Assembly (NCBI GenBank): GCA_035295465.1
Contig: DATGIZ010000014.1
Coordinates: 78,369-142,368 of the forward strand
Source: Candidatus Binatia bacterium
GTDB lineage: Bacteria; Desulfobacterota; Binatia; DP-6
Direction of reading: 5' to 3'
Length of the DNA: 64,000 nucleotides
Below, piece by piece: positions 16,839 through 46,775 of the stretch. Position 1 is the stretch's first letter. Each line of letters opens with the position of its first letter. A program made the translations under genes and the position numbers. The notes under the pieces are model-generated. The model was not told the DNA's origin and did not search any database. It saw only the letters and a list, made by a program, of their open reading frames with translations.

Positions 16839-16954
16839 CGCATGCTACCGGCCCTGCAACCGGCGTACCGCCCTCCACTGCGGGCCCGCGGTGCACCGCC
16901 TCGTCGGATTCCTTCATGGTGGCTTGCTTTTCGTGAACGATGCTGGCGCCGCCT

Positions 16955-16978
16955 GGCCTTCCCACCGGCCGGAAGGCC
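16955..16978. promoter_or_regulatory. perfect palindrome GGCCTTCC-N8-GGAAGGCC in the divergent region upstream of the decaheme gene
   Basis: 8-bp arms with GC-rich 8-nt spacer, about 100 nt upstream of ATG 17081. Confidence 0.3.
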
Positions 16979-17080
16979 CCTGCCGGGGGGTTGCCAATCA
17001 CGAGACGACACGGCGAAAAAGCCAGGCGGCACGGCTCAGCACGCCGAGTGCATACGTTCCAGCAGGGAAGGGGGACGCTG

Positions 17081-31470: not shown

Positions 31471-32991
31471 ATGACTGACCAAGCACCCGTGCGCGAGGTC
31501 CACCCGAAGGCCCCGGCGCTCACCGGCAACTGGCTGAGCATGGTCGGCATGCTGATCGCCGCCTGCAGCTTCTTCGCCGCCACGGTCCTCCTGACGATCA
31601 ACATGCTGGCTCCCTTCGGGAATCCCTACATGGGGATCCTCGTCTACCTGATCGCGCCGGCCTTCCTGCTGCTGGGGCTTCTGCTCGTGGGCACGGGAGC
31701 GTGGCGCGAACGTCGGCGCCGACGGCGGCTGGCCCCGGGCGTCGTGCCCCAGTTCCCACGCATCGACTTCAACCTGCCTCGCCAGCGCCGCATCGCCGTC
31801 ATCGGCACGGCCCTCGTCCTCGCGTTCCTCCTCGTCACTGCCGTCGGCAGCTACCAAACTTACGAGTACTCCGAGTCCGTCGCGTTCTGCGGGCAGGTGT
31901 GCCACGGCGTCATGCGGCCCGAGTACACCGCCTACCAGAACTCGCCGCACGCGCGGGTGGCGTGCGTCGCGTGCCACATCGGTCCCGGCGCGAGCTGGTT
32001 CGTCCGCTCGAAGGTGTCCGGCGCCTACCAAGTGTATGCCACGCTCACCGACGTGTACCCGCGCCCGATCCCCACGCCCATCGAGCATCTACGGCCCGCC
32101 CAGCAGACCTGCGAGCAATGCCACTGGCCGGCCAAGTTCTACGGCGACGCCGAGCGGGTCTGGCATCACTTCCTCTCGGACGAGCGCAACTCCCCGTGGA
32201 CGATCCGGCTGCTGATGAAGGTCGGCGGCGGCGACCCGACGCACGGCCCCGTGGGCGGCATCCACTGGCACATGAACATCGCCGACGAGGTCGAATACAT
32301 CGCGACCGACGCGAATCGGCAGACGATCCCCTGGGTGCGGATCACCCGGCGCGACGGCACCGTCACGGTCTATCAATCGCAGGATGCCCCGCTCACTCCC
32401 GCGCAGATCGCGGCCGCCGTCCCCCGCCGGATGGACTGCATCGACTGCCACGACCGCCCCTCGCACGATTACCTCGACCCCGCCCACGCGGTGGACATCG
32501 CGATGAGCATCGGCCGCATCGATCCGGCCATTCCGTTCATCAAGAAGGAAGCCGTGGCGGTGCTGGCGGAGAAGTACGCCAGCACCGCCGAGGCGCAAGC
32601 CGCCATCGCCGAGAAGCTGACGACGTACTACGAGACTCGATACGCGGACTTCACGGCCGGGCACCGGGCGATGATCACGCAGGCGATCGCCGGGGTCCAG
32701 GAAATCTACCGCCTCAACTTCTTCCCCGAGATGCACGTCGACTGGAAGGTGTACCCGAACAACATCGGCCACCTCACCGCCCCGGGCTGCTACCGCTGCC
32801 ACGACGGCAACCACGTGAGCGCCGACGGGGAGGTGGTCAAGCACGACTGCGACTCGTGCCACGTCATCCTCGCGCAGGGCTCGGCCGCCAAGCTCCAGCC
32901 CGAGCGGCTCGAGTTCGAGCACCCCGCCGACATCGGCGACCTGTGGCAGCAGATGAGCTGCGACCAGTGCCACACGGGCGGCCCATCATGA
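31471..32991 (+). CDS. ImcH-like inner-membrane seven-heme c-type cytochrome (NapC/NirT-related)
   Basis: 506 aa; three N-terminal TM helices then seven CxxCH motifs (CGQVCH, CVACH, CEQCH, CIDCH, CYRCH, CDSCH, CDQCH). Confidence 0.8.
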   Translation: MTDQAPVREVHPKAPALTGNWLSMVGMLIAACSFFAATVLLTINMLAPFGNPYMGILVYLIAPAFLLLGLLLVGTGAWRERRRRRRLAPGVVPQFPRIDFNLPRQRRIAVIGTALVLAFLLVTAVGSYQTYEYSESVAFCGQVCHGVMRPEYTAYQNSPHARVACVACHIGPGASWFVRSKVSGAYQVYATLTDVYPRPIPTPIEHLRPAQQTCEQCHWPAKFYGDAERVWHHFLSDERNSPWTIRLLMKVGGGDPTHGPVGGIHWHMNIADEVEYIATDANRQTIPWVRITRRDGTVTVYQSQDAPLTPAQIAAAVPRRMDCIDCHDRPSHDYLDPAHAVDIAMSIGRIDPAIPFIKKEAVAVLAEKYASTAEAQAAIAEKLTTYYETRYADFTAGHRAMITQAIAGVQEIYRLNFFPEMHVDWKVYPNNIGHLTAPGCYRCHDGNHVSADGEVVKHDCDSCHVILAQGSAAKLQPERLEFEHPADIGDLWQQMSCDQCHTGGPS

Positions 32992-33819
32992 GAACGCCAG
33001 GATCGTGAGCGTGAAGAGCACGAAGCCGGTCACGACCACGCTGAGGCCCAACAGGCGGCCGAAGTTGCGCAACCAGCGTTCCGGGGGTCGCGTCTCGAGG
33101 TCGCCCAAGCGTCCCGACCGCACCAAGCGCTCGAACTCCAGCGGCCGCTCCTCGCGCAGCTCTTCGCCGCTCACCCGGCCCGTGAAGATGACGAGATCCA
33201 TCGGGAACTTCTCGGGCCGCAGATGGGCGTTGAAGAAGTGGATGGTGAAGATGAACCAGACCGCGAGCAGCGCCTCCTCGGAGTGGACGATCAGTGCCAC
33301 ATTGAACATCCACCCGGGCAGGAACCTCGCGAAGAACTCCGAGAACCACAGCACGAAGCCTGACGTCCCGATGATGAACATGCCCCAGAACACGGCCCAG
33401 TAGTCGAACTTCTCCCAGTAGGTGAAGCGGTCGAAACGCGGCTTCGGTCCGAGGCCCAGAAACCATTTGACGTTCCCGTACAGGTCGACGAGGTCCTTGG
33501 GCTGCGGAACCAGGGACCCGGGCCCCCAGAACAGGCCCCGGCGGCGCTCGACGAGGGCCATCCACCCCACGTGCACCAAGTGGGTGAAGAAGCAGAGCGT
33601 GAGGGCGACCGCCGAGACCTTGTGAAGGAAGAGAATCGTCCCGAGGCCGCCCATCGCCTGCGCCAGGGCCGTCGCCCACGGGGCCCAGTTCAGCTTGATG
33701 GGAAGACCCGTTGCGGCGAGCCCGAGAAAGCTCGCCATCAGCACCCCGTGGAGAATCCTGTCGAAGAGGGAGATCCGCCAGAAGTAGCGACGGCGTGCGC
33801 TGGGGTCCTCCTGGGCCAT
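32986..33819 (-). CDS. dihaem b-type cytochrome membrane subunit (FdnI/HydC/Ni_hydr_CYTB-like; CbcL b-domain-like)
   Basis: 277 aa from MAQEDP (GGAGGGA RBS; alternative ATG 33831 overlaps upstream stop); 4-5 TM helices with paired His (ILHGVLMASF, FLHKVSAVAL, FTHLVHVGW, IVHSEE...IHFFNAHL). Confidence 0.75.
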   Translation of the reverse strand: MAQEDPSARRRYFWRISLFDRILHGVLMASFLGLAATGLPIKLNWAPWATALAQAMGGLGTILFLHKVSAVALTLCFFTHLVHVGWMALVERRRGLFWGPGSLVPQPKDLVDLYGNVKWFLGLGPKPRFDRFTYWEKFDYWAVFWGMFIIGTSGFVLWFSEFFARFLPGWMFNVALIVHSEEALLAVWFIFTIHFFNAHLRPEKFPMDLVIFTGRVSGEELREERPLEFERLVRSGRLGDLETRPPERWLRNFGRLLGLSVVVTGFVLFTLTILAFS

Positions 33820-33830
33820 CGATCCCTCCA

Positions 33831-35027
33831 TCAGCGCCGCCCGCGGCTCTCCCGCAGCGACCGCAAGAGCCACAACACGGTGTGAACGCCGAAGAACACG
33901 AACACGCCGACGAGCAGCATTCTCATCGACAGCGCCACGGCCCAGAGGCCGGGATTGCGCGCGCGGTCGCGGACGTCGGCGTGGGGTCGGTAGGCGACGA
34001 AGTTGACATTGGCCGCCGGATGGCACTTCCGGCAGGTGTCGACCAGGTGCGCGGGCGCGATGGAGGAGCGCGGGTCGGACGCCGGCAGCACCCGGTGCGC
34101 CTCGTGGCAATCGGGACACCGGGCGACCACGGTGAAGCCGAGGCCGGTGATCTGACCGTGGAAGCTGTCGCGGAACGTCGCGCGCGACTCGGTGTGGCAT
34201 GAGCCGCACTCGGAGACGGTGGCGACCTGCCAGCCGGGCGCGGTGACGTTCTGGATGCGATGCGCCCCGTGGCAGTCGATGCAGACCGGCGCGTCGCGCC
34301 GGCCTGCGTGGAGCGCGTCCCCATGGGAGCCTTGCAGGTAGGCGTTCTCGACGCCGGCGTGACACCGCCCGCAGGTCGCAGGGATGTTCGTCCTGAACAC
34401 CTTCGAGTCCGGGTCGTTCGCCGGGAGGATGTCGTGGGCCCCGTGGCAGCTCGAGCAGTTGGCCGCGACCAGGAGCCCCCCGCGGCTGACCGCGCGGCCG
34501 TGGATGGAGTCCATGTAGAGCTGGTACGCGTCGGCCACCGGGATGCCGTGACGTTCCGCAAGCGCACGGTCGCCATGGCAGACACCGCAGGTGCGCGGCA
34601 GGTTGAGCGGGTAGACCGGCGAGGTCGGGTCGGTCACCTTGGCGACGGCGTGCGGCGAGCCGTGGCAGCTCGTACAGGTGGCGGCGTCGGTCCCACCGGC
34701 GGCGCGTGCTCGCCCGTGCACGCTGCGGTCGTAGATGGAGACCACGTCACGATGGCATGCCGCGCACACCTGCGGCCCGAGGTGGGCCGGCGGCTCCTCG
34801 TGCGGCCCCGACACGCCGGCGTGGCAGCTCGTGCAGTCGAGCCCGGCGTGCTCCGACGCGCCGTAGGCGGCGGCGCCGACGAACAGCGAGCGTCCATCCG
34901 GCGCGGTCACCCCCTCCACGCCGTGACAGGCCAGGCACATCTCGTCGTTCTCGCCACCCCGCGCGGGGCGCGCGCCGAGAGCGAGCACGAGCACGGCGGT
35001 CCATACCACGGCACGAGCGGTGGATCG
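33831..35027 (-). CDS. membrane-anchored multiheme c-type cytochrome, 11 CxxCH (paired-CXXCH type)
   Basis: 398 aa from MRSTARAVVWTAVLVLALGA (signal peptide); 11 CxxCH motifs with CxxCHGxH spacing; C-terminal TM helix GLWAVALSMRMLLVGVFVFFGV. Confidence 0.85.
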   Translation of the reverse strand, partial: RSTARAVVWTAVLVLALGARPARGGENDEMCLACHGVEGVTAPDGRSLFVGAAAYGASEHAGLDCTSCHAGVSGPHEEPPAHLGPQVCAACHRDVVSIYDRSVHGRARAAGGTDAATCTSCHGSPHAVAKVTDPTSPVYPLNLPRTCGVCHGDRALAERHGIPVADAYQLYMDSIHGRAVSRGGLLVAANCSSCHGAHDILPANDPDSKVFRTNIPATCGRCHAGVENAYLQGSHGDALHAGRRDAPVCIDCHGAHRIQNVTAPGWQVATVSECGSCHTESRATFRDSFHGQITGLGFTVVARCPDCHEAHRVLPASDPRSSIAPAHLVDTCRKCHPAANVNFVAYRPHADVRDRARNPGLWAVALSMRMLLVGVFVFFGVHTVLWLLRSLRESRGRR

Positions 35028-35047
35028 CATCGTCGCCGTCCCGAACC

Positions 35048-36295
35048 TCACCGCGACGACGGTCCCTGCTCGTCGAGGGAGCGCATCTTGAGGTAGACGA
35101 CGGCGCCCACCACCGCGATCATCGCGAGCGGGATGAGCGCCATCCAGCGCCGGCTCCGCAGCTCCACGAGCGCCTCGTCGCCCGTGTGCGCCGCGTCGGT
35201 CGCGGTCTTCACCCCCGCGTCCGCCATCTTCACCAGCGACGCAGCATCGAACGCGTGGACCTGCGTGCGGGTCTTCACCAGGTCCTCGCGCGCGCTCTGC
35301 AGCGCAGCCTCGGCCTCGCTCACCTCCATGCCGGCGGCGCTGGCGCGCGACAGGGTGCCCTCGGCGACCGATACCGCGTCCTTCAACCGATCGATGCCGA
35401 GCCGCATCTGCTCGGCGGCGGCGTAGCCCGCGCTCTCGGGCGCGTGGCAGCTCACGCAGATCGCGGTGGCGCCCACGCCGAGCATCTCGTCGCTGGTGCG
35501 CATCACGAGGTGGTTGCCGTGACAGGTGACGCATTCGGGCAACCCGAGGCGGTCGAAGGCGGGATGATGCGGGCTCGCAAGGAAGAGATCCTTATTGAAG
35601 GCATGGCACTGCCCGCACACCGCCGCCACCGAGCGCGCCCCCGGCGGGTACGCGCCGTGGTTGCCGTGGCAGTCGTTGCAGGCCGGCGCCGCGACGTCGC
35701 GCTCGACGAGGAGCGTCTGCCCGTGCACGCTGCGCTGGTACTGGGCGAGCTGGTTGGTCGGAATGTGGTAGGCGGCCATATAGCGCGCGTCGGCGTGGCA
35801 GCGGCCGCACGTCTCGGGCACGTTCATCTTGTAGACCGGGCTCGTCGCGTCGCTCGCGGGCAGGATGCCGTGGACGCCGTGGCACGAGACGCAGGTCGCC
35901 ACGTTCGTGTCGCCCTGGCGCAGCCGCTGCCCGTGCACGCTCGTCCAGTAGGTCGCGAGCTGATCGACGGGCAGGCGCGGGTTGAAGCGGCGCATGTAAC
36001 CCTCGTCCGCGTGACATCGGCCGCAGAATTCGGGAACGCGAGCGCGCTCGGGCTTGCCGACGAAGCCCTTGGCCGCGTCCATGGACGACATGTCCGGATC
36101 CTTCGGGTCGCCGCCGTGGCAGTCGGCGCAGGAGAGCCCGGCCTTCGCGTGGACGTCCCGCTTCATACCCTCGACGGGGGGCCCGAGCGGCTCGGGCAGC
36201 TCCTTGTGGCAGTCCACGCAGGTGTCCTCGGCACGGGCCAAGGGGCCGCCGGCGACGAGCAGGAGTATCGCGACGATGACGGCGACCGGTCGCAT
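35048..36295 (-). CDS. membrane-anchored multiheme c-type cytochrome, 9 CxxCH (paired-CXXCH type)
   Basis: 415 aa from MRPVAVIVAILLLVAGGPLARA; nine CxxCH; coiled region then C-terminal TM helix ALIPLAMIAVVGAVVYL; stop 2 nt from cyt b... upstream gene stop. Confidence 0.85.
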   Translation of the reverse strand: MRPVAVIVAILLLVAGGPLARAEDTCVDCHKELPEPLGPPVEGMKRDVHAKAGLSCADCHGGDPKDPDMSSMDAAKGFVGKPERARVPEFCGRCHADEGYMRRFNPRLPVDQLATYWTSVHGQRLRQGDTNVATCVSCHGVHGILPASDATSPVYKMNVPETCGRCHADARYMAAYHIPTNQLAQYQRSVHGQTLLVERDVAAPACNDCHGNHGAYPPGARSVAAVCGQCHAFNKDLFLASPHHPAFDRLGLPECVTCHGNHLVMRTSDEMLGVGATAICVSCHAPESAGYAAAEQMRLGIDRLKDAVSVAEGTLSRASAAGMEVSEAEAALQSAREDLVKTRTQVHAFDAASLVKMADAGVKTATDAAHTGDEALVELRSRRWMALIPLAMIAVVGAVVYLKMRSLDEQGPSSR

Positions 36296-36297
36296 CG

Positions 36298-37368
36298 TCA
36301 GTACGGCTTGAAGTACGCGAGCAGCGTCATCACCACCATGAAGCCGAGCAGGAGCACGCCGCCCGCGGTCACCAGGGGGCTCGGCTCGCCGCGGGCGGCA
36401 CGCCGGTCGAGGAACGGAACGAGGACGAGCAGCCCGAAGACCGCTCCGAAGCCCAAGATGGCCACCTGCTCGCCCTCGAGCCCGAAGAGGCGTGGCGGCA
36501 CGTACTTGAAGCTCTGCGACATGAAGGTGAAGTACCACTCCGGCCGGATCCCGCTCGGCGCGGAGGCGAAGGGGTCCGCCTTCTGCCCGAGCTCCCAGGG
36601 GAAGAACGTCGCCAGCACGATCAGGACGGCGAGCACGGCGAGCCAGACGAGCACCTCGCGCAGCACGAAGTGGGGATAGAAGGGCATGTGGCGCGCCGTG
36701 CGCGCGCTGTCGCCGAGGCGCTCGCTCATGCCGTGAAGCTGGACCAGCGCCAGGTGGACGAGCAGGAGCAGCGTCGTCGCGAGCGGCAGGAGCGCCACGT
36801 GGAATCCGAAGAACCGGGTGAGCGTCGCGCCGCCCACGTTCTCGCCCCCGCGCAGCACGAAGCGCAGGACGGGCCCGACGCCCGGGACCTCCCCCATGAT
36901 GTCGGTGCCCACCTTCGTGGCGAAGAACGCGAGCTGGTTCCACGGCAGGAGGTAGCCCGAGAAGCCGAAGGCGAGCGTGAGCCCGAGGAGCCCGCAGCCC
37001 GTCAGCCAGGTCACCTCGCGCGGCGGCCGGTAGGCTTTCAAGAAGAACACGCTGAACAGGTGGGTGAACACGGCCGCGATCATCAGGTTGGCCGCCCAGG
37101 CGTGCAGCGAGCGCACCAGCCAGCCGAAGCGCACGTGCGCCATGATGAAGCGCACGCTCTCGAACGCCGAGTCCGGCGCGGGGCGGTAGTAGAGCAGCAG
37201 GAGAACGCCGGTCGCCACCTGGACGCCGAACAGGAAGAGGCTGGCGCCGCCGAAGTAGTACCAGATCGAGTGCTCGACGGGCACGAGCTTGTGCGCGAGG
37301 AAGTCCCGCGCCGCCCCGACGCGGAGCCGGTCGTCGAGCCACCTCCCGACGGTGCGCGCCACGCTCAT
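36298..37368 (-). CDS. cytochrome b of a Rieske/cytochrome b (bc-type) complex
   Basis: 356 aa from MSVARTVGRWLDDRL; ATG overlaps Rieske stop (ATGA); cytochrome b/b6 N- and C-domain motifs (HSIWYYFGG, RSLHAWAANLMIAAVFTHLF, HVALLPL, PEWYF). Confidence 0.9.
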   Translation of the reverse strand: MSVARTVGRWLDDRLRVGAARDFLAHKLVPVEHSIWYYFGGASLFLFGVQVATGVLLLLYYRPAPDSAFESVRFIMAHVRFGWLVRSLHAWAANLMIAAVFTHLFSVFFLKAYRPPREVTWLTGCGLLGLTLAFGFSGYLLPWNQLAFFATKVGTDIMGEVPGVGPVLRFVLRGGENVGGATLTRFFGFHVALLPLATTLLLLVHLALVQLHGMSERLGDSARTARHMPFYPHFVLREVLVWLAVLAVLIVLATFFPWELGQKADPFASAPSGIRPEWYFTFMSQSFKYVPPRLFGLEGEQVAILGFGAVFGLLVLVPFLDRRAARGEPSPLVTAGGVLLLGFMVVMTLLAYFKPY

Positions 37369-37808
37369 GCGCGCCGGCTCACCACCACCTGATCGCCGCG
37401 CACCGCCACCTCGAGCGCCTCGAGAGGCCGCGGCGGCGGGCCCGCCACGTTGCGGCCGGTGAGGTCGAAGCGGCCGTTGTGGCACGGGCACCACAGCAGC
37501 TCGAGGTCCTTGCGGTACTGCACCGTGCACCCCAGGTGCGTGCAGACCGCCGAGAACGCCCGCAGCTCGCCGCCCGCCAGGCGCACCACGATCGCGGGCC
37601 GCTCACCGAAGCGCACCACCTTCCCCGAGTCGAGCGGAAAGTCGCGCAGCTGGCCCACGACCGCCGTTCCGACGGCCGCCTCGGGCTGGTCGGCGGGCGT
37701 GACGTAGCGAACGATGGGGTAGAGAAGCACGCCGAGCAGGGAGCCGCTGCCGAGCGAGAGGAGCCAGTTGATGAGCCGCCGTCGCGACAGGCCGTCCGCT
37801 TCCGTCAT
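37365..37808 (-). CDS. Rieske [2Fe-2S] protein, Tat-exported
   Basis: 147 aa; twin-arginine motif SRRRLINWL; Rieske boxes CTHLGC and CPCHNG. Confidence 0.9.
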   Translation of the reverse strand: MTEADGLSRRRLINWLLSLGSGSLLGVLLYPIVRYVTPADQPEAAVGTAVVGQLRDFPLDSGKVVRFGERPAIVVRLAGGELRAFSAVCTHLGCTVQYRKDLELLWCPCHNGRFDLTGRNVAGPPPRPLEALEVAVRGDQVVVSRRA

Positions 37809-37817
37809 GCGCGCTCC

Positions 37818-39785
37818 CTACAGGTTGAACCGCTTCGTCAGCCGGAACACCACGATCGTCGCCCGATAGTCGTTCTGCGGCAGCACGCGCTCCCGGTAGT
37901 CGATCATCCGGAACTCGATTCCCGGCTCGACGAGCGGATGAAGCCAGGTGAGGAACACGCCGCCGTCGACCCGCCGGAGGTCGAAGGCCGTGCGCAGCCC
38001 CGCGCCGGGCTCGAGGCTCGGGCGCAGCGTGTCGTTCGAGTCGACGTAGAACACGTCGGAGCCCGCCGCCCACTTCTGCCCGAGCAGCGAGAAGTCCCAG
38101 CGCAGCGAGCTCGTGAACACGTCCTCGCTGCCCTGCTGCACGGAGAGCGCGCGGTCGTAGAGCGGGCCGACCAGGATGTCGGCGCGGTCGCTCAGATCCC
38201 GCCGGGTGTAGCTGGTCATGAGGCTCAGTCCGGCGAGCGGGGTCAGCGTGAGCGCGACGCCGTTGCCGAAGCTCTGCGCGCTGCCGGCGAAGCTCGCGTT
38301 CTCGCGGCTGTCGGCGATGAGCTGGTAGCTGAGCGACACCCAGTCCCACGGCGCGAGCCGCAGCCCGGCCGCCGCCCGGTTGACGAACGTCAGCACCGCC
38401 TCGCGTCCGGGCAGCGCCGGGATCCGGTTCGGGTCGCCGGGCACGAGCAGCGGATCGTCGATCTGGACGTTCTCGTAGCGCGCCCAGAGGTTCACAGCCG
38501 ACCACGGCCGGTAGTTGAAGCTGCCCACGGCGCCCACCGTGTCGGTCGCGATCTTGTCGCCGCTGAGCGACAGGTTGACGTCGCGGTGGTTGTACCGGAC
38601 GCCGCCTCGCAGCGTGAGGTCCTCGCGCGGCTCGTACTCGAGGTCGCTGGTGACGCTGTGGACGCGGAGCTGGTCGCCGGTCGCCGTGGCGAACGGCCCG
38701 AGCACGCTCTGCTCGGCGATCGAGCCCGACTGCGTGCGCTCGTTGTAGCGGTAGGCGACGTTCAGGAGCACGTCGCGGGTCACCGCCATCGTGCCCCCGA
38801 GGTCGACGATGTGCGTGCTCAGCGCCGCCGAGCCGTGCTGGACGGCGCTCGCGGTGGTGGGGGTCGGCGACGGCGCCGTCGTCGCCGTATACAGACTTTG
38901 CCCCGTGAATCCGAGGGATGCGTGGCTGTAGAAGTAGCCGCCGGTGAGCTCGAGCCAGTCGCCGATCGGGCGGCGCAGCCGCACGGTCGTGGCCGGGATG
39001 TCGAGGTGCTCGTCGCGGGTGGTGTGGTTGGCGAGGAGCTTGAAGCCATCCGTGGGATCGAGGCCCGCCGGGTCGAGGGGATTGCCGAGAGTCAGCTCGC
39101 GATCGACCCGCCGGTACTCCTGCTGCAGCATCACGTCGGTGCCGAGCGCGTGGAAGTCCGTGCCCACGAGCCCGACGTGCGTGGTCATGTCGAGCGGCGC
39201 GGTCACGACGAAGTTGTCGCCCCCGGGGATGAGCACCGTCGAGCTGCCGTCGCCCTGGCGCTGGTAGAGCCGGTAGCCGAGCCGCAGGACGGGCAGATTT
39301 GGGGCGTGGACGGTGAGGTCGACCGTGCCGTCGGTGCGTCGGGTGTTGAACTGGTGCAGGTCGTTGGTCTGCACGTCGCCCGGGACGGGCTTCGCGAACT
39401 CCTCGGGGACCGCGTAGAAATACTGCGAGCGCGTGAACCGCGCGCTCAAGTCGAACCAGCGCCGGTTGGCGGCCGAGAGCGCGAAGTGCGAGACGGGCTC
39501 GTCGCCCGGCGTGTCGACCTCGAGGTGGAAGCGGTCGAGCGGCCCCCCGGGCGCCTTGGCGCGCCCGTCGGTGAGGAAGCTGAACAGCCGTGCGCCCTCG
39601 CGGAAGTTGTAGTCCTCGCGGTACTTGGCGTCGGCCCCGTCGACGTCGACCAGCCGATACCCCGCCGTGGCCGCGCCCTCCAGCGTCCAGCCGCCGAGCA
39701 GCCCCGGGGCGTCGTCGGCGGCCGCGCGCGCCCCTCCCCAGAGCACGGACGCCAGCGCGAGGAGCAGACGCAGCCCCCGGCGCAT
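37818..39785 (-). CDS. putative outer-membrane beta-barrel (MtrB/PioB-like porin partner of a periplasmic multiheme cytochrome)
   Basis: 655 aa from [23 protein letters not shown] (signal peptide); ATG shares 1 nt with upstream stop; Tyr/Gly/Asp/Thr-rich alternating amphipathic pattern throughout, no Cys/haem motifs; immediately downstream of MtrA-like decaheme gene. Confidence 0.65.
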   Translation of the reverse strand: MRRGLRLLLALASVLWGGARAAADDAPGLLGGWTLEGAATAGYRLVDVDGADAKYREDYNFREGARLFSFLTDGRAKAPGGPLDRFHLEVDTPGDEPVSHFALSAANRRWFDLSARFTRSQYFYAVPEEFAKPVPGDVQTNDLHQFNTRRTDGTVDLTVHAPNLPVLRLGYRLYQRQGDGSSTVLIPGGDNFVVTAPLDMTTHVGLVGTDFHALGTDVMLQQEYRRVDRELTLGNPLDPAGLDPTDGFKLLANHTTRDEHLDIPATTVRLRRPIGDWLELTGGYFYSHASLGFTGQSLYTATTAPSPTPTTASAVQHGSAALSTHIVDLGGTMAVTRDVLLNVAYRYNERTQSGSIAEQSVLGPFATATGDQLRVHSVTSDLEYEPREDLTLRGGVRYNHRDVNLSLSGDKIATDTVGAVGSFNYRPWSAVNLWARYENVQIDDPLLVPGDPNRIPALPGREAVLTFVNRAAAGLRLAPWDWVSLSYQLIADSRENASFAGSAQSFGNGVALTLTPLAGLSLMTSYTRRDLSDRADILVGPLYDRALSVQQGSEDVFTSSLRWDFSLLGQKWAAGSDVFYVDSNDTLRPSLEPGAGLRTAFDLRRVDGGVFLTWLHPLVEPGIEFRMIDYRERVLPQNDYRATIVVFRLTKRFNL

Positions 39786-40654
39786 CACTGCTCCAGGAAG
39801 TTCGGATCGACGTTCGATCCGTGGATGGCCACGTGGCAGCGCGTGCAGTCGCGGTAGCTCGGCTGCACGTGGCTCGCGGGCGTGACCGTGTGGCACTCGT
39901 AGCAGAGCTGCGCCACCTGCTGGCGAATCAGGAGGTGGCGGTTCACGCTGCCGTGCGGGTCGTGGCAGCGCTGGCAGCCCTCGGCGAGCACGGCCTCGTG
40001 CTCGAAGACGTAGGGGCCCTCGAGGTCGCCGTGGCAGCGGAAGCAGGTGCGGTTGTTGGCCCCGCGCAGCGCCACCGGGTTGTTGCTCCCGTGCGCGCGG
40101 TGGCAGTCGAGGCAGCCGAGCACGCCCTCGTCGACCTGATGGTGCTCGGGCAGCACGAATTTCGCGCGGATCTCGAGGTGGCAGCCGTAGCAGAGCTTCG
40201 GCGGGTCGGCCTTGAGGAGATGCTCGCCGCGCGCCGCGTGCGGGTCGTGGCAGTCGGTGCACGCCACGGCCGAGGCGGCGTGCTCGCTGCGCCGGAAGTC
40301 GAACCGGTGTTCCTCCCCGCCGTGGCACCCGAGGCAGACCGCGGAGCGCTCGCGCGCCGAGCGCGTGGGGGCGAAGCTCTGGAGCCCCCCGACGCCCTTG
40401 CCGCCGCCCGCCTCGGCGTGCGCCGAGCCCGGCCCGTGGCACGCCTCGCACCCCCGCTGCGACTCCGGCCGCGACTCCTTGGCGAGCGGTGCCGCGTGGG
40501 GCGTCTTGTCGTACGCCTCCGCCACGTCGGCGTGGCAGGCGGCGCAGGTGTCGGAGCCGACGTAGGTGGGCGCCGCGGCCGGGGGCTCGTCGGCCCGCGC
40601 CGCGCCGGCTGCGACCGCGAGCAGCAGCGCCGCGGCGAGGACGGCGCGCCTCAT
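39785..40654 (-). CDS. MtrA/DmsE/PioA-family periplasmic decaheme c-type cytochrome
   Basis: 289 aa from MRRAVLAAALLLAVAAGAARA; ten CxxCH (CAACH, CEACH, CLGCH, CTDCH, CYGCH, CLDCH, CFRCH, CQRCH, CYECH, CTRCH) with MtrA-like CHDPHG/CHxxHGS spacing; ATG overlaps upstream stop. Confidence 0.85.
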   Translation of the reverse strand: MRRAVLAAALLLAVAAGAARADEPPAAAPTYVGSDTCAACHADVAEAYDKTPHAAPLAKESRPESQRGCEACHGPGSAHAEAGGGKGVGGLQSFAPTRSARERSAVCLGCHGGEEHRFDFRRSEHAASAVACTDCHDPHAARGEHLLKADPPKLCYGCHLEIRAKFVLPEHHQVDEGVLGCLDCHRAHGSNNPVALRGANNRTCFRCHGDLEGPYVFEHEAVLAEGCQRCHDPHGSVNRHLLIRQQVAQLCYECHTVTPASHVQPSYRDCTRCHVAIHGSNVDPNFLEQ

Positions 40655-41694
40655 GGCGGGTTGAACCCCGCCGCGTGACGGTGGCAGGGCAGGCAGGAGA
40701 ACGTGTAGTGCCCCTGCGGTCCGCTGCCGTCGGCGCGGTAGAACTTGGTCGTCGTGTGGCAGACCTCGCAAATGCCGGTGCCCGGCTGCGAGGCGCTCGC
40801 GAAGCTCCCGTCGAACTGCCCGAGCACGTTGTCGAAGACGATCGGGACGAGCCCGCCCTGCGAGCGCTCGATCTGGTCGAGGACGAGGTCGCTGTTGTCG
40901 GTGCCGTGCGGGTCGTGGCACTGGGTGCACGGGAACGGCGGCACGCCCGGCGGGGCGTGCGTCAGGTTCGTGTGACAGTCGGCGCAGGCGGGCACCGTGC
41001 GGTGCCCCACCCCCGGCGTGGGCACGACCGCGGCGTGGCAGCCGCTGCAGTCGAAGCTCGCGCTGTGGAGATTGGCCTTGGCGAAGCGCGCCGCTTCCGC
41101 GGTGTGGCAGATCGCGCAGTTCTGCTCGGTCGCCACCGGCTGAAAGCCCGCCTCGTGGTCGTGGCACAGGACGCAGCTCTGCGCGAAGTGCGGCTGCCCG
41201 CGCCCGTCGGCGCGGTAGACCTGCGTGCGCCGGTGGCAGACCTCGCAGAGACCCTTGCCGGGACGCGCGGGATCGGTGAAGCCGCCCGGCGCCGCCCCGC
41301 TCTCGCTGTCGTAGACGATTGGGATGAGCCGCCGCGGTCCGGTGCGGAAGAGGCTCGTGCGGATCAGATGGAGGTTCGGCGAGCCGTGAGGGTCGTGGCA
41401 GCCGATGCAGTTGCGCCGCGGCTTCCCGGGGCGGTTGGCGCCGTGCGGCGGGTGGCGGACCGCGGTGTGGTGCGAGCCGCAGCTCGTGATGATCGCCCGG
41501 TGCCCGACCCCGACCCGCCCCGGCCGGCGGTCCCGGTGGCAGTCCTCGCAGCCGACGCTCGGCGCGTGGCCCCCGGTCGTCGCGCCCAGCGTCGCCTCCT
41601 CGAGGTGGCAGCGCCCGCAAATGCCCGCGTCTGCCGCCACCGCCGGGGCCGTGCGCGCGAGACAGACCATCAGCAGCACCCCCGCCGTGCGCAC
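40651..41694 (-). CDS. periplasmic multiheme c-type cytochrome, 11 CxxCH, internally duplicated
   Basis: 347 aa from GTG (MRTAGVLLMVCLARTAPAVAA signal); 11 CxxCH; two repeated units LCEVCH..YRADG..SCxxCHxHxAGF(Q/N)P. Confidence 0.85.
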   Translation of the reverse strand: MRTAGVLLMVCLARTAPAVAADAGICGRCHLEEATLGATTGGHAPSVGCEDCHRDRRPGRVGVGHRAIITSCGSHHTAVRHPPHGANRPGKPRRNCIGCHDPHGSPNLHLIRTSLFRTGPRRLIPIVYDSESGAAPGGFTDPARPGKGLCEVCHRRTQVYRADGRGQPHFAQSCVLCHDHEAGFQPVATEQNCAICHTAEAARFAKANLHSASFDCSGCHAAVVPTPGVGHRTVPACADCHTNLTHAPPGVPPFPCTQCHDPHGTDNSDLVLDQIERSQGGLVPIVFDNVLGQFDGSFASASQPGTGICEVCHTTTKFYRADGSGPQGHYTFSCLPCHRHAAGFNPP

Positions 41695-41736
41695 CTCGAT
41701 CCCTCTAGCCGAAGTCCCGGCCGCAGATCAATCCCC

Positions 41737-41800
41737 CGCTGATATTTCTCATCATTGCGAGATTCTTTCTCACTTCTGCGTTTTGCGCCGGGGGGTTTCG
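41737..41800. promoter_or_regulatory. AT-rich divergent promoter region between the conduit operon (minus) and monoheme cyt c paralog B (plus)
   Basis: local AT-rich island in a >70% GC genome; direct repeats TTTCTCA(tca)...TTTCTCA(ctt). Confidence 0.45.
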
Positions 41801-41844
41801 GCCCTGCCTGCCTTCTGCTACAGGCGGAGAGCAAAGGAGGAGCC

Positions 41845-42177
41845 ATGAGCTCGACGGTACGCACAGTGACGGCCGCCCTGCTCGTCGCGGCGATGCCGCT
41901 CGGCGCGGCAGCGGTGAGCGACGAGACCAAGGCGCTCTACGAGAAGGACTGCAAGGCCTGCCACAGCATCGCCGGCGAAGGTGGGAAGATGGCGAAGCTC
42001 GGCGGAGCGCTCGATGACGTCGGCGTCAAGCGCGACGCGGACTGGCTGCGAGCGTACCTCAAGGACCCCAAGTCGAAGATGCCCGACGCGAAGATGCCCA
42101 AGGTGAAGCTGACCGATCAGGAGCTCGAGGACATGGTCGCGTACCTGCTCACGCTAAAGACGGCGCCTCCCAAGTAG
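41845..42177 (+). CDS. monoheme c-type cytochrome (paralog B)
   Basis: 110 aa from MSSTVRTVTAALLVAAMPLGAAA with AGGAGG RBS; single CKACH; paralog of 31006..31353. Confidence 0.8.
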   Translation: MSSTVRTVTAALLVAAMPLGAAAVSDETKALYEKDCKACHSIAGEGGKMAKLGGALDDVGVKRDADWLRAYLKDPKSKMPDAKMPKVKLTDQELEDMVAYLLTLKTAPPK

Positions 42178-42213
42178 CCCGTTCCGGCAAGCGAATTGCA
42201 ATCCATCGTGGGC

Positions 42214-42930
42214 ATGCGCAGCTTCGGGGCCACGGCCACGGGCTTCCTGCTCGCGCTCGCGGCGTCGGCGGCGGCGGCCGGCACGGGGGCGGTCGCGGGC
42301 ACCGTACGGGTGGAGGGCACGGTCGCCCCGCGCCCTCCCCTGCCCGTCTACAAGCACCATGAGGTCTGTGGCGACGGCGTCCCGGACGACCGTCTGGTGG
42401 TGGGTGGCGCCGGCGGCCTGCGCTACGCGGTCGTCAGCGTGGAGGGGGTGCGCGGCGGGCGGCGGCCCGAACGCGACGTGACGGTCGACCTCGACAACCA
42501 GCGCTGCCGGTTCGAGCCGCACGTCCAGACCGCCGAGGTCGGCCAGTGGCTCGAGCTCCACAACAGCGATCCGATCCTGCACAACGCCGACGCGCGCATG
42601 GGCCCCGACACGATCTTCAACGTGGGCCTGCCGCCCGGTCGTCGGGTGCGCAAACCCCTCGCGCGCGCCGGCCTGGTCACCATAACTTGCGACGTCCGCC
42701 ACACGTGGATGCGCGCGTACGTAGCGGTCGCCGACGATCCCTACCACACGGTGACGGACGCCGACGGCGCGTACGAGATCCGCGACCTGCCGCCGGGACG
42801 GTACACGCTGCGCGTCTGGCACGAGGAGCTGGGAACCCGGGAGCGGCCGATCACGGTGGAGGCCGACAAGACGCTCACCGCGGACGTGAGCTACCCGGCG
42901 CCCGCAGGCGCGCCGGAGGCGCCGCGATGA
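42214..42930 (+). CDS. secreted cupredoxin-like (plastocyanin-type ligand pattern) + CarbopepD_reg-like domain protein
   Basis: about 238 aa; signal peptide; His...Cys-x3-His-x2-Met pattern (LHNSDPILHN ... ITCDVRHTWM) then DGAYEIRDLPPGRYTLRVWHE beta-sandwich; start ATG 42214 or TTG 42196. Confidence 0.6.
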   Translation: MRSFGATATGFLLALAASAAAAGTGAVAGTVRVEGTVAPRPPLPVYKHHEVCGDGVPDDRLVVGGAGGLRYAVVSVEGVRGGRRPERDVTVDLDNQRCRFEPHVQTAEVGQWLELHNSDPILHNADARMGPDTIFNVGLPPGRRVRKPLARAGLVTITCDVRHTWMRAYVAVADDPYHTVTDADGAYEIRDLPPGRYTLRVWHEELGTRERPITVEADKTLTADVSYPAPAGAPEAPR

Positions 42931-43526
42931 TCCGCCTCGTGCTCGTGCTGGCCCTCGCGCTCGCCACGACGGGCGCGCGCGCGGAGGAGGGCGCCGCCGT
43001 GAAGGGCACGATCACCGCCGGGCCGGCGCCGGGGACGCCGGTGGCCGACGCCGTCGTGCTGGTCGACGGCCCGTCGGTGCCGGCCCCGCCGGACGCGCCG
43101 CACGCGACCATCGACCAGCGCAACGAGAGCTTCGTTCCCCACGTGATCGCGATCGCGGTGGGAACCACCGTCGACTTCCCGAACCACGACCCGGTGCTCC
43201 ACAACGTCTACGCCGCTTCGCCGGCCAAGCACTTCGACCTGGGCATGTACGGCGAGGGGGAGTCGCGCAGTGTGCTCTTCGACAAGGCCGGGGTCGTGCG
43301 GGTGGGCTGCAACGTCCATCCGAAGATGGAGGCCTTCGTGATCGTGCACACCAACCCGTGGGCGGCGGTCACCGACGCCCACGGCGCGTACACGATCACG
43401 GGCGTGCCTCCTGGGCACTACACCGTGCGCGTCTGGCACGAGAGCCGGGGCGCCCGCGAGGTGCCGATCACGCTGCGGGCCGGCGAGGTGCTGCCGCTCG
43501 ATCTCCGGCTCGAGCCGGCTCACTGA
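42927..43526 (+). CDS. secreted cupredoxin-like + CarbopepD_reg-like domain protein (tandem paralog)
   Basis: 199 aa; ATG overlaps upstream stop (ATGA); signal peptide MIRLVLVLALALATTGARA; FPNHDPVLHN ... VGCNVHPKMEAF (Cys-x2-His-x2-Met) then HGAYTITGVPPGHYTVRVWHE. Confidence 0.65.
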   Translation: MIRLVLVLALALATTGARAEEGAAVKGTITAGPAPGTPVADAVVLVDGPSVPAPPDAPHATIDQRNESFVPHVIAIAVGTTVDFPNHDPVLHNVYAASPAKHFDLGMYGEGESRSVLFDKAGVVRVGCNVHPKMEAFVIVHTNPWAAVTDAHGAYTITGVPPGHYTVRVWHESRGAREVPITLRAGEVLPLDLRLEPAH

Positions 43527-43593
43527 GCCGTCGCTCGGCTCGTCCGCCTCGCGAGCCGCCCCGGCGCGATGGCCGCGTGCGCCGCGGAGGCGC

Positions 43594-45021
43594 TCACGCC
43601 GACAGCACCGCGTGCGCCGCCGCGAGACCGGCGTACGCCGAGACGTCGACGATCGCCGCCGGAGCCTCGAGCGTCGCCGATGCCAGCAGCAGCCCCTCGA
43701 TGCCCGGCACCGTGAGGCCGTGGCGCTCGAGCGGCGCCCAGGCCCAGCTCATCGACTGCGGCGCGGTGACGTACTGGTACGCGCTCCACTCGATACAGTC
43801 GTCGAGGTCGGCGTAGTACCGCCGCAGGTACGCGATCGCGGCGTCGAGGTGGGCGCGGGCCGCCGTCCACGGCGGGCCCGCCGTGGTCCCGCCGTCGAAG
43901 AACCGGGCCATCACCCACGACAGGAGGTGCTTCCCCGGCGGTGCCGCCCGGCGGCTGGTGAGCGAGGGGAGGTGGTAGCCGCCCGCGTAGCGCCGCTCGC
44001 CTGCGGCGCCGAGAAGGAAGCGGTTCCATCCGGCGTGATCGTCCGGCCGGCCCGTGGCGCGCACGGTCGGCAGCCGACGCAGCCCCGCCTGCCAGCCGAT
44101 CAGGTCGGCGCGGTACCGCGCGAGCGCTTCGGCCGCGGCGACGAACCCAGGCGGGAAGCGGCGCGCGTCGATCAGGTCGAAGAGCTCCCACACGGGGTAG
44201 GTGCAGACGGCGACCGGCGCCTGCACCTCGCGCACGAGGTTCGCGCGGTCGACGGCGACCGCGCCGTGCACGCGCCCGCCGTCGACCACGATCTCGACGG
44301 GCTTCCAGCCGAGCGCGATCTCGCCGCCGCGCGCGCGGATGGCGCGCGCCCACGGCTCCATGAGCCCCTGCATGCCGCCGGCCTCGGCGTCGTCGGCGAT
44401 GTGCGGCGCGCCCTTCGGCGTCTGGAAGAACTGCATGAGTCGCCCGGCCGACGCGTCGGCCGGGCGCGGGTGGAAGATCACGGCCGCCATGAGGAGGAGC
44501 GCGCGCCGCACGCCCGGGTGCCGCACGTGCGCCTCGACCCACGCGCCGAGGCGCACAGGGAGCGCCGCCTCGACCTGGGCGGCGTCCGCCCCCGCGAGGC
44601 GGGCGAGCACCGCCGTCAGCTCCTCGATCCCGTCGGCGGGGCATTCGAAGAAGTCCCGCGCGGCGGCGAGGAATCCGCCCGCGCTCCAATCGCCGCCGTC
44701 GAGCACGCTGCCGTCGGCCAGGCGGTGCACGCGCAGCGGACGGGCGATCGCCCGCACGGCCACCTCGACGCCGGCTTCGCGCGCGGCCTCAACGCCGTAA
44801 TGCCACGGGAACTCGCAGTCGCCGACGCCGTGCGCGTCGCGATGGCCGAAGTCGATCCAGAAGCCGTCGGGCGTCCGCACCGCCCCGCCGCGACCGCCGA
44901 CCGCGTCGGCGTGCTCGAGGACGACCACCCGCCGCCCGTGCCGCGTGAGGATCGCGCCGGCGACCAGGCCCGCCAGGTCCGCGCCGACGATGACGACGTC
45001 TGCCGTTGCCGCGGGCCGCAT
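43594..45021 (-). CDS. FAD-dependent oxidoreductase (phytoene-desaturase/amine-oxidase-like)
   Basis: 475 aa; N-terminal dinucleotide-binding motif DVVIVGADLAGLVAGAIL...VVVLE. Confidence 0.8.
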   Translation of the reverse strand: MRPAATADVVIVGADLAGLVAGAILTRHGRRVVVLEHADAVGGRGGAVRTPDGFWIDFGHRDAHGVGDCEFPWHYGVEAAREAGVEVAVRAIARPLRVHRLADGSVLDGGDWSAGGFLAAARDFFECPADGIEELTAVLARLAGADAAQVEAALPVRLGAWVEAHVRHPGVRRALLLMAAVIFHPRPADASAGRLMQFFQTPKGAPHIADDAEAGGMQGLMEPWARAIRARGGEIALGWKPVEIVVDGGRVHGAVAVDRANLVREVQAPVAVCTYPVWELFDLIDARRFPPGFVAAAEALARYRADLIGWQAGLRRLPTVRATGRPDDHAGWNRFLLGAAGERRYAGGYHLPSLTSRRAAPPGKHLLSWVMARFFDGGTTAGPPWTAARAHLDAAIAYLRRYYADLDDCIEWSAYQYVTAPQSMSWAWAPLERHGLTVPGIEGLLLASATLEAPAAIVDVSAYAGLAAAHAVLSA

Positions 45022-45472: not shown

Positions 45473-45635
45473 TGCCGCCCTCTCAGTATCGGCCGAGGGC
45501 GCCGGGCGCTTGAGGGGGTGAGCGTCAATATTGCTCGCGCCGCCGTCAACCGCGTGGCGCCCTCCCGGGCGCTGGGACGGGCCGGCGCAGGCGCCGTCCT
45601 CTTCCTGCCGGTACGGCCCTTGCTATCACGAACGC

Positions 45636-46775
45636 ATGGGCTCGCGCTTGCACGCCCGCGCCCGCCGCGACCTTCCGCCACCGGCCGCCCCGTTCGAGGC
45701 GCTCGTCGAGAACAGCCCGGCGGTCGCGTTCCTCAAGGACGCGCACGGCCGCCACCTCTACGTCAACCGGGCCTTCGAGCGGGCGTTCGACCGCCCGCGC
45801 GCCACCGCGGTCGGCCTCACCGACGTCGACCTCTTCTCCGCCGAGATCGCGCGCGAGCTGCGCGCCAACGACGCCCGCGTGCTGGCGGCCGACGAGACCG
45901 TCGAGCTGCACGAGACCGTCCCAGCCGCGGACGGCACGCTCTGCCACTGGCTGGTGCTCAAGTTCCCCGTCGACGGGCCGAACGGCGAGCGGCTGATCGG
46001 CGGCATGGCCGTCGACGTCACCGCCCAGCACCAGGCGGCGGAGACGCTGCAGCGGGCGAGCCAGGCCGCGGTCGACGTCGCCCGCATCCGCTCGGAGTTC
46101 ATCGCCAACGTGAGCCACGAGCTGCGCACGCCGCTCAACGTCGTCCTCGGGTTCACGGACCTCGTGCTGGAGACCGAGCTCACCGCCGAGCAACGCCGCC
46201 ACCTGGAGACCGTCCGCGCGGCGTCCGTCGATCTCCTCGGGCTGATCGGCGACATCCTCGACCTCTCGACGATCGACGCGGGCAAGCTCACGATCGCGCC
46301 GGTGCCGACGAGGTTGGAGGCGTTCCTGCCCGCCACGCTCGAGCCCCTGGCGCCGGTCGCCCGGCAGAAGGGGCTCACGCTCACCTGGGCCGTCGAGCCC
46401 GGCGTCCCCGACCCGGTGCTCGTCGATCCGGTGCGCCTGCGCCAGGTGCTGGTGAACCTCGTCGGCAACGGGCTCAAGTTCACGGAGCGCGGCGGCGTCA
46501 CGGTCCGCGTGAGCCGGGACGGGTCAAGCGACGCGGTCACGCTGCGCTTCGCCGTCGCCGACACGGGTATCGGCATCGCCCCCGACCGCCAGCAGGCGAT
46601 CTTCGAGCCATTCGTCCAAGGCGACGGCTCCACGACCCGGCGATACGGCGGCACGGGCCTCGGCCTCACGATCGCCGCGCGGCTCGTCGAGCTGATGGGC
46701 GGTGACGTCCGGGTCGAGAGCGCGCCCGGGCGGGGAAGCACGTTCCACTTCACCGTGAGCGCGCAGCCCCGGTAG
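45636..46775 (+). CDS. PAS-domain sensor histidine kinase
   Basis: 379 aa from MGSRLHAR; PAS region; H-box FIANVSHELRTPLN; HATPase N, G1, G2 boxes (LVNLVGNGLKFT, DTGIGI, GGTGLGL). Confidence 0.85.
   Translation: MGSRLHARARRDLPPPAAPFEALVENSPAVAFLKDAHGRHLYVNRAFERAFDRPRATAVGLTDVDLFSAEIARELRANDARVLAADETVELHETVPAADGTLCHWLVLKFPVDGPNGERLIGGMAVDVTAQHQAAETLQRASQAAVDVARIRSEFIANVSHELRTPLNVVLGFTDLVLETELTAEQRRHLETVRAASVDLLGLIGDILDLSTIDAGKLTIAPVPTRLEAFLPATLEPLAPVARQKGLTLTWAVEPGVPDPVLVDPVRLRQVLVNLVGNGLKFTERGGVTVRVSRDGSSDAVTLRFAVADTGIGIAPDRQQAIFEPFVQGDGSTTRRYGGTGLGLTIAARLVELMGGDVRVESAPGRGSTFHFTVSAQPR

Follow-up and report, generated by a model that had tools for sequence, protein, structure and literature searches.

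A tandem pair of candidate blue copper proteins with a cupredoxin nested in a CarboxypepD_reg sandwich, encoded beside a multihaem cytochrome operon in a Binatia bacterium

What might two small proteins with export signals do beside an operon of multihaem cytochromes? The question is raised by two adjacent genes, here named A and B, in a 64,000-nucleotide stretch of a Candidatus Binatia bacterium genome (contig DATGIZ010000014.1; this whole stretch is called the window below, and positions refer to it). A preliminary description of this DNA had taken the products for translationally coupled paralogs, each with a signal peptide, a motif reminiscent of type-1 copper sites and a C-terminal β-sandwich, and had proposed them as electron shuttles. 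We cautiously favour the view that A and B are periplasmic copper electron carriers.

The coupling and the paralogy both hold. The stop codon of A (TGA) and the start codon of B (ATG) overlap as ATGA, GGAGG is read from the DNA 7 nt ahead of the B start, and the two proteins are 43% identical over 134 amino acids (E = 3e-30). No further copy of either was found within the window, whose proteins are identical to those of a Candidatus Binatia metagenome-assembled genome (P0001). Judged by eye, both N-termini are signal-peptide-like: a few basic residues lead into a hydrophobic run, which gives way to an end rich in Ala. These N-terminal segments have a low predicted local distance difference test score (pLDDT) in the AlphaFold2 (AF2) models of both proteins: residues 1-20 of A have a mean pLDDT of 55-63 and are without regular secondary structure, and B has a helix at residues 2-13. 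A scan of 41500-43800 for promoters and terminators found nothing, which is uninformative given the 73% G+C (72.9% in the window).

Candidate copper ligands, predicted fold and nested architecture

The arrangement His...Cys-x2/3-His-x2-Met is present in both proteins. The motif ITCDVRHTWM of A contains C159, H163 and M166 (C-x3-H-x2-M), and the motif VGCNVHPKMEAF of B contains C128, H131 and M134 (C-x2-H-x2-M); the upstream ligand-type His, H123 in A and H92 in B, stands in an L-H-N motif in each case. These loops are kept in 120 of 120 homologs of A and in 119 of 120 homologs of B. The alignments, with 141 A and B sequences, show no variation in any of the four ligand columns (His, Cys, His and Met), and the Asn that follows the first His and is characteristic of type-1 copper sites is kept in at least 90%. 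Aligned with B, A has the same ligand residues and one extra residue in the loop. Such conservation of four ligands and an adjacent Asn, across phyla and in both paralogs, is hard to explain without a metal site, and each protein probably binds one copper in a type-1 His/Cys/His/Met site.

The fold agrees with this assignment. A phmmer search of PDB sequences with B returned the type-1 copper domains 9cck (E = 2.5e-5), 6hbe and 5fc9 as well as amicyanins, and in these alignments H92, C128, H131 and M134 coincide with the ligand positions of 9cck, 6hbe and 5fc9 (vlHnv/vvHtv; CnvHpkM/CtlHpwM). The Pfam profile Copper-bind (PF00127) scored 21.2 bits on the whole B protein, exactly its cut-off of 21.2, and 24.6 bits on the isolated domain. 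AF2 models built from the 141-sequence alignments had pLDDT values of 92.9 (B) and 92.3 (A). Compared with the PDB by Foldseek, the B model matched the NirK cupredoxin 6hbe (8.6e-8), amicyanin (1e-7), 5fc9, plastocyanin and pseudoazurin with probability 1.0. The A model matched 6hbe (5e-6) and others more weakly, again with probability 1.0 to cupredoxins; among its other matches were a copper-bound Bacillus anthracis Cupredoxin_1 protein, CuA domains, AcoP, amicyanin, plastocyanin, pseudoazurin and 5fc9. These models predict a cupredoxin fold for A and for B with high confidence, and the cupredoxin-like character suggested by the preliminary description is borne out to that extent.

One of the best fold and sequence matches of B, 5fc9, is a Nitrosopumilus cupredoxin, and this could be taken to mean that A and B are small copper enzymes, for example direct oxidants of Fe(II), Mn(II) or a nitrogen oxide. 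The relatives that adjoin Cyc2-type and Nxr-like genes (see below) would fit such a role, as the products of these genes handle such substrates. However, a complete His/Cys/His/Met set whose fourth ligand is Met makes a site of the closed, electron-transfer type, and A, B and the single-copy relatives share no conserved motif for a second metal site. An enzymatic function thus appears very improbable. A closed site conserved in a cupredoxin that is predicted to be exported suggests a copper centre for electron transfer.

The cupredoxin does not stand by itself. The C-terminal 60 residues of both proteins match CarboxypepD_reg (PF13620) with 47.5 bits (A) and 46.6 bits (B), above the cut-off of 32.3, which upholds the β-sandwich of the preliminary description. 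In the intact proteins, the match spans only profile positions 17-82. When residues 21-50 of B were joined to residues 141-199, the score rose from 46.6 to 57.5 bits and the match became full length (profile 2-82 of 82); A with its cupredoxin cut out gave 52.9 bits (profile 3-79 of 82). Because the joined flanks give a fuller and higher-scoring match, the profile evidence indicates that the middle domain interrupts the sandwich between its strands 2 and 3, and is not a separate N-terminal domain. The sandwich is therefore not C-terminal as a whole, as had been supposed, but split, with its first two strands N-terminal to the cupredoxin. In the sandwich of B, W170-H171-E172 is conserved and W170 is invariant.

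Protein A has in addition an insert between sandwich strands 1 and 2 that is missing from B and from the single-copy relatives. It holds the invariant Cys52, and the surrounding K-x4-C-G is kept in 119 of 120 A homologs. The first cupredoxin strand of A has a conserved F-x-P, and a second invariant cysteine, C98, stands two residues ahead of this motif. In plastocyanin, F14 and H37 are 23 residues apart, as are F100 and H123 in A, and C98 would correspond to Leu12, a residue that adjoins the exposed His ligand. By this analogy, a C52-C98 disulfide might staple the insert of A beside the electron-transfer port.

Cytochrome neighbourhoods of the pair

A gene for a small cytochrome c ends 36 nt upstream of A on the same strand and is the probable first gene of the A-B unit (Table 1). 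A small cytochrome c homologous to it adjoins the pair, or the Rieske/cytochrome b operon of the pair, in three loci of other genomes (L002, L003 and L019; L numbers designate the loci of relatives). As the preliminary description had observed, the pair lies directly beside a multihaem operon: the cytochrome c-A-B unit is divergent from genes for decahaem, porin-like, Rieske, cytochrome b and further multihaem proteins. This operon resembles a porin-cytochrome conduit combined with a complex that oxidises quinol, and its products are the probable redox partners of A and B.

For the neighbourhoods in other genomes, 84 non-redundant loci were compared. The best 80 loci of a scan of one genome per species are a mixture of Binatia-like metagenome-assembled genomes (MAGs), some of them labelled deltaproteobacteria, with Acidobacteriota (Vicinamibacterales, Terriglobia), Armatimonadota, Ignavibacteria, Gemmatimonadota, Bacteroidota, Krumholzibacteriia and Brocadia. 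The tandem A-B pair was found only in Binatia-like genomes, including MAGs labelled deltaproteobacteria (15 distinct pair loci among the 84), and the loci outside them have a single B-like gene. In L002, genes for a cytochrome c, a Rieske protein, cytochrome b, a multihaem cytochrome, A and B follow one another on one strand; the order in L059 is cytochrome c genes, A, B, Rieske, cytochrome b and a pentahaem cytochrome; L003 has a Rieske/cytochrome b/multihaem cluster 2.5 kb from the pair; and other multihaem cytochromes are near the pair in L009, L010 and L019. When open reading frames (ORFs) with at least 4 CxxCH motifs were counted as multihaem, one was found within 6 kb in 7 of the 15 pair loci vs. 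1 of the 57 remaining single-copy loci, which are mostly kinase-linked (Fisher p = 3e-5). The varying gene order argues against simple inherited synteny. The electron-shuttle idea gains support from pairs that lie inside or beside Rieske/cytochrome b and multihaem operons in several arrangements, and this recurrent, rearranged linkage to small c-type and multihaem cytochromes supports a carrier role for the Binatia pair.

If A and B are carriers, both would be exported to the periplasm by the Sec pathway, and each would bind one copper in the type-1 site of its inserted cupredoxin. The ATGA overlap would let them be made in a fixed ratio, and they may work as a pair. They would transfer single electrons in the periplasm in a role like that of rusticyanin or amicyanin. 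As partners they would have the monohaem cytochrome c encoded next to them, the complex of Rieske protein and cytochrome b together with its multihaem cytochromes, and the decahaem of DmsE/MtrA type with the porin-like protein beside it, and the CarboxypepD_reg sandwich could serve as a scaffold or docking surface. Whereas the gene structure, the paralogy, the predicted fold with its nested architecture, the ligand conservation and the recurrence of the neighbourhood are established by the analysis, we infer copper binding, export, the association of A with B and their redox partners, as well as the direction of electron flow.

Table 1. Positions of the features discussed (in the window unless a locus is named)
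Feature	Position	Strand	Remarks
Gene A	42214-42930	+	238 amino acids; predicted exported; variant-loop cupredoxin, predicted to be nested in CarboxypepD_reg sandwich
A signal-peptide-like N-terminus	42214-42279	+	residues ~1-22, MRSFGATATGFLLALAASAAAA; read directly, no predictor-based cleavage site
A-specific insert	42316-42417	+	residues 35-68; 34 residues
A Cys52	42367-42369	+	within insert
A cupredoxin	42475-42732	+	residues ~88-173
A C98	42505-42507	+	invariant
A candidate ligands	H123 42580-42582; C159 42688-42690; H163 42700-42702; M166 42709-42711	+
A C-terminal sandwich part (strands 3-7)	42733-42897	+	PF13620 residues 168-225, E 2.3e-12
Gene B	42927-43526	+	199 amino acids; predicted exported; amicyanin-loop cupredoxin, predicted to be nested in CarboxypepD_reg sandwich
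B signal-peptide-like N-terminus	42927-42983	+	residues 1-19, MIRLVLVLALALATTGARA; read directly
B sandwich strands 1-2	42993-43067	+	residues 23-47; model strands E23-31, E43-47; N-terminal to cupredoxin
B cupredoxin	43098-43349	+	residues ~58-141
B candidate ligands	H92 43200-43202; C128 43308-43310; H131 43317-43319; M134 43326-43328	+
B C-terminal sandwich part	43350-43514	+	PF13620 residues 138-196, E 4.4e-12
Monohaem class I cytochrome c	41845-42177	+	110 amino acids; Pfam Cytochrom_C E 6.5e-13; one CxxCH
Divergent operon	32986-41694	-	gene calls, precomputed Pfam, CxxCH counts
11-haem cytochrome	40651-41694	-	CxxCH count
DmsE-family decahaem	39785-40654	-	TIGR03508 228.8 bits vs. cut-off 192.2
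Porin-like protein	37818-39785	-	655 amino acids; weak MtrB_PioB and GSU2204 matches only
Rieske protein	37365-37808	-	Pfam
Cytochrome b	36298-37368	-	Pfam
9-haem cytochrome	35048-36295	-	CxxCH count
Second 11-haem cytochrome	33831-35030	-	CxxCH count
Membrane protein	32986-33819	-	277 amino acids; gene call
Brocadia B-like gene cluster	L071 and L081, 3229-10549		255 amino acids, CNVHSEM loop, CarboxypepD_reg
Conserved kinase cluster, Acidobacteriota and other phyla	example L057, 8516-14066		outer-membrane-like protein, B-like protein, kinase, sigma-54 NtrC-type regulator, 140-amino-acid lipoprotein
TIGR04053-family gene	L003 5772-6869	-
TIGR04053-family gene	L019 10730-11872	-
TIGR04053-family gene	L011 1405-2393	+
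TIGR04053-family gene	L008 ~20201-20584
Universal-stress-protein-like gene	L010 8385-8852; L012 5052-5558; L013 1098-1604; L020 9277-9759

Further genes of the window and of the pair loci are recorded here as observations in their own right. A second monohaem cytochrome c (31024-31335, + strand) is 62% identical to the one next to A, and adjoins a gene for a 506-amino-acid protein (31471-32991, + strand) with six CxxCH motifs and a weak NapC/NirT-type match. By eye, a 981-amino-acid protein (16940-19885) has ten CxxCH motifs, and the regions 20-5277 and 23441-28036 appear to encode cytochrome oxidase subunits I and III (CoxI/CoxIII, the oxidase lying at the start of the window), succinate dehydrogenase and hydrogenase maturation proteins. 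Next to or near the pair in four Binatia-like loci is a radical SAM/SPASM gene of the TIGR04053 family (445 bits, cut-off 395), which is related to the haem b synthase AhbD; the window has none. Several low-GC relatives have a universal-stress-protein-like gene, recognised by eye ('KILAPTDLSELS...RYAL'), divergently upstream of the pair or single gene.

The wider family and its neighbours

The scan of one genome per species detected a relative of A or B in at least 586 genomes. When 1.84 billion representatives were searched with a profile, 3,784 clusters reached E <= 1e-30, among them many full-length matches of 190-270 amino acids; this count overestimates the size of the family because giant CarboxypepD_reg repeat proteins dominate the top. 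For A and for B each there are hundreds of close metagenome homologs, labelled 'plastocyanin' or 'hypothetical' in IMG and 'carboxypeptidase regulatory-like domain-containing protein' at NCBI. Of 79 family ORFs from all sampled phyla, 77 have a ligand loop of the form C-x2-H-x2-M or C-x3-H-x2-M, and 73 have the N-x-D-x3-H motif that holds the first His. Four proteins (P0264, P0265, P0267 and P0269) each join two complete modules in one polypeptide, which agrees with a working unit of two modules. Proteins P0273-P0275, of 800-1150 amino acids, have 6-8 consecutive C-x2-H-x2-M cupredoxin units.

No solved structure that matched by sequence beyond the individual domains was found in PDB searches with A and B, and literature searches for cupredoxin together with 'carboxypeptidase regulatory-like' or CarboxypepD_reg returned no paper on this combination. 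Although not rare, the architecture is undescribed, and the family is large and uncharacterised; the domain combination had seemed unusual to the preliminary description, and this did not stand in the sense of rarity. The features that are new relative to described blue copper proteins are the nesting in a CarboxypepD_reg sandwich, the loop and insert of A, and the tandem pair.

In six loci (L039, L045, L066, L079, L083 and L087) the single B-like gene directly follows a gene for a Cyc2-type cytochrome-porin. They come from at least two phyla (Acidobacteriota including Terriglobia, and Bacteroidota) and one unclassified MAG. Cyc2-type proteins were recognised by the signature of Keffer et al. 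2021 (PMC8406198), in which A-x-P-x-F-A-R-[QK]-[TY] is followed by CxxCH and then by P-x-L; in L039 the [QK] position is occupied by Arg. In L087 the B-like gene is followed by genes for an iron-sulfur (FeS) flavoprotein, a Rieske protein, a split cytochrome b and an 8-haem cytochrome, a set resembling anammox-type Rieske/cytochrome b complexes. Up to the edge of the analysed stretch, L045 has flavoprotein, Rieske and cytochrome b genes, and L083 flavoprotein and cytochrome b genes. In Brocadia, the B-like gene lies directly 3' of the gene for a Tat-exported 1149-amino-acid molybdopterin protein (NxrA-like), a NarH-like FeS protein is encoded in the same cluster, and the cluster is probably the nxr cluster. 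Uncharacterised putative blue copper proteins have been noted in the anammox nxr cluster (PMC11791136). A literature search for kustd1700 with blue-copper found nothing.

The partners suggested by these neighbourhoods, namely Cyc2-type proteins, a DmsE/MtrA-type conduit and an Nxr-like enzyme, share the handling of high-potential donors, which fits the generally high potentials of blue copper proteins. They also fit the Acidithiobacillus model, in which electrons pass from Cyc2 to rusticyanin and on to an oxidase or bc1, rusticyanin being the branch point between the two (PMC10654088).

Several observations weigh against carriers as the function of A and B, and the first concern A itself. The whole protein had no Pfam cupredoxin match, its excised cupredoxin matched no Pfam family and had no PDB sequence match of its own, and an A-family profile matched only sandwich domains among PDB sequences, so that the assignment rests on paralogy to B and on the fold. 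The C-x3-H-x2-M spacing of A also differs from that of classical type-1 proteins. No cytochrome lies within 6 kb in 8 of the 15 pair loci, several of which are short contigs, and the multihaem enrichment may partly reflect cytochrome-rich Binatia genomes. Moreover, the commonest context in our sample, which is dominated by Acidobacteriota, is a histidine kinase gene just downstream on the same strand (49 of 70 loci outside Binatia), and in a Chthonomonas MAG (L028, 9950-12621) a gene for a HAMP-GGDEF-HD-GYP membrane protein follows the B-like gene in place of the kinase. As a signalling protein is the commonest neighbour in the wider family, the ancestral role may be sensing.

The divergence of A, too great for sequence models, could also be read as the mark of a structural or adhesive protein of the periplasm or cell surface whose cupredoxin no longer binds metal. 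CarboxypepD_reg is common in surface proteins and in the giant repeat proteins that top the profile search. All four ligands and the adjacent Asn are nevertheless conserved across phyla and in both paralogs, and of the functions considered this is the most improbable.

The linked kinases have about 600 amino acids, with a periplasmic dCache/CHASE4-like region, HAMP, HisKA and HATPase, and start within 2.3 kb downstream, usually at 0-100 bp; a sigma-54 NtrC-type regulator is also present in 44 of the 49 kinase loci. The conserved cluster of Acidobacteriota and other phyla ends in a lipoprotein whose sequence is cupredoxin-like, with no Pfam match. The haem-less outer-membrane-like gene upstream of the Vicinamibacterales relatives showed no BLASTP similarity to Cyc2-type proteins and no Pfam match. 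The leading alternative to the carrier view is that family members are periplasmic redox or copper sensor partners: the copper site would report redox poise or copper level in the periplasm and the protein would modulate a membrane signalling protein, as ZraP does for ZraS/ZraR, the Binatia pair being a duplicated descendant. A second signalling output behind the same upstream gene, as in Chthonomonas, is what one expects of a sensor accessory. Yet a linked downstream kinase is absent from the window and from all 11 pair loci with enough downstream sequence, and the pair loci are linked to cytochromes instead. The kinase of the window (45531-46775), for which Pfam lists PAS, HisKA and HATPase domains but neither a HAMP nor a periplasmic one, is 2 kb from the pair, beyond two opposite-strand genes. 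A two-component system next door can also simply regulate the gene. A sensor role may well be that of the kinase-linked relatives; for the pair we consider it unlikely.

The same two-component linkage recalls, by analogy with what is generally known, copper-responsive regulons, and together with a conserved Cys/His/Met site in a predicted exported protein it might indicate copper handling, that is, periplasmic binding, buffering or detoxification like that of the cupredoxin-type copper tolerance protein CopI. However, the linked regulators are NtrC-type and not of the OmpR-type that is usual for CopRS/CusRS. None of the genes called in the window within 10 kb is a copper-resistance gene, the P-type ATPase encoded next to the pair in L003 has Cation_ATPase_N and Cation_ATPase_C domains and is read as a non-heavy-metal type, and neither A nor B shows a tract rich in His or Met. 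We regard copper handling as improbable and retain electron transfer as the favoured function of the pair.

A wider proposal can be made only tentatively, and we hold it to be doubtful at present: the family could be an undescribed, widespread class of two-domain blue copper proteins that link Cyc2-type cytochrome-porins, MtrA/DmsE-type porin-cytochrome conduits and nitrite oxidoreductase through the periplasm to Rieske/cytochrome b complexes or oxidases in uncultured soil and sediment Binatia, Acidobacteriota, Bacteroidota and anammox Planctomycetota. They would then be a neutral-pH counterpart of rusticyanin, and the kinase-coupled relatives would be redox sensors using the same copper site. 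Outside Acidithiobacillus, little is known of the periplasmic carriers between the inner-membrane chain and the outer-membrane cytochromes that oxidise iron or minerals, and the A/B family is a candidate carrier that can be found by sequence. In lineages not yet grown, it is recurrently linked to Cyc2-type genes, to porin-cytochrome modules and unusual Rieske/cytochrome b complexes, and to an NxrA-like gene. Type-1 copper sites would be known in a wider range than before through the nested architecture and through the C-x3-H-x2-M loop of A, and a possible redox sensor based on copper is suggested by the relatives linked to kinases. If A and B are ordinary carriers, the gain would be a better annotation for thousands of genes labelled 'carboxypeptidase regulatory-like domain-containing protein' or 'plastocyanin'. 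We see the family as a solid but incompletely labelled candidate and not as a new principle.

Comparison with known copper proteins and redox systems

Like amicyanin and plastocyanin/pseudoazurin (PF00127), A and B have a predicted cupredoxin fold, a His-Asn motif, a copper domain of about 90 residues and predicted export, and the Cys-x2-His-x2-Met loop of B has the length of the amicyanin loop. They differ from amicyanin and plastocyanin in that the domain is nested in a CarboxypepD_reg sandwich and the protein is twice as long; A differs further by its C-x3-H-x2-M loop, its 34-residue insert and its conserved Cys pair. By the Pfam score of its isolated domain, the cupredoxin of B falls into the plastocyanin/azurin family. 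An identity as amicyanin of methylamine utilisation was rejected: TIGR02657 gave 18.8 bits with B and no match with A (cut-off 110.2), and no mau-type or methylamine dehydrogenase genes are among the called genes within 10 kb. The Binatota paper names amicyanin only as mauC, and a literature search on a 'MauL' lead gave nothing relevant.

The best sequence and fold matches are the extra C-terminal cupredoxins of three-domain NirK and multicopper oxidases (6hbe, 9cck), whose CtlHpwM resembles CnvHpkM of B. Those domains are fused to catalytic copper enzymes, whereas A and B are without a catalytic domain. One of the folds that best match A is the CuA domain of cytochrome ba3 oxidase subunit II. 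The CuA loop is C-x3-C-x3-H-x2-M, and the C-x3-H-x2-M of A equals its second half. A binuclear site in A was nevertheless rejected: the C-x3-C of CuA is not present in the ligand loop of A or B, each of which has one loop Cys. In A (VTITCDVRHTWM), Val155 stands four residues before C159, and as the first CuA cysteine is missing, a binuclear site is not expected.

CopI-type copper-tolerance cupredoxins were compared on two features, and A and B are unlike them in both, having no copper-resistance genes within 10 kb and no His/Met-rich segment. Most non-Binatia relatives share the gene order of ZraP-ZraS-ZraR, with an exported metal-site protein, a kinase and a sigma-54 regulator, and it is the window pair, without a linked kinase, that departs from it; kinship with ZraP in sequence or fold is not expected. 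The Brocadia relative, directly after an NxrA-like gene, is placed like the putative blue copper proteins noted in the anammox nxr cluster, which may be of this family; it differs from the A-B pair in its single copy, longer N-terminus and different partner enzyme.

Rusticyanin of Acidithiobacillus ferrooxidans was absent from the top 50 Foldseek matches and from the phmmer matches of A and B. It has no sandwich host domain and its loop lengths differ from those of A and B, and the window has a decahaem and porin-like module, not Cyc2. The likeness to rusticyanin is one of context: a periplasmic cupredoxin is encoded with an outer-membrane cytochrome or cytochrome-porin and with Rieske/cytochrome b, and relatives of A and B directly follow Cyc2-type genes. 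On this context, the A/B family may be a functional analogue of rusticyanin.

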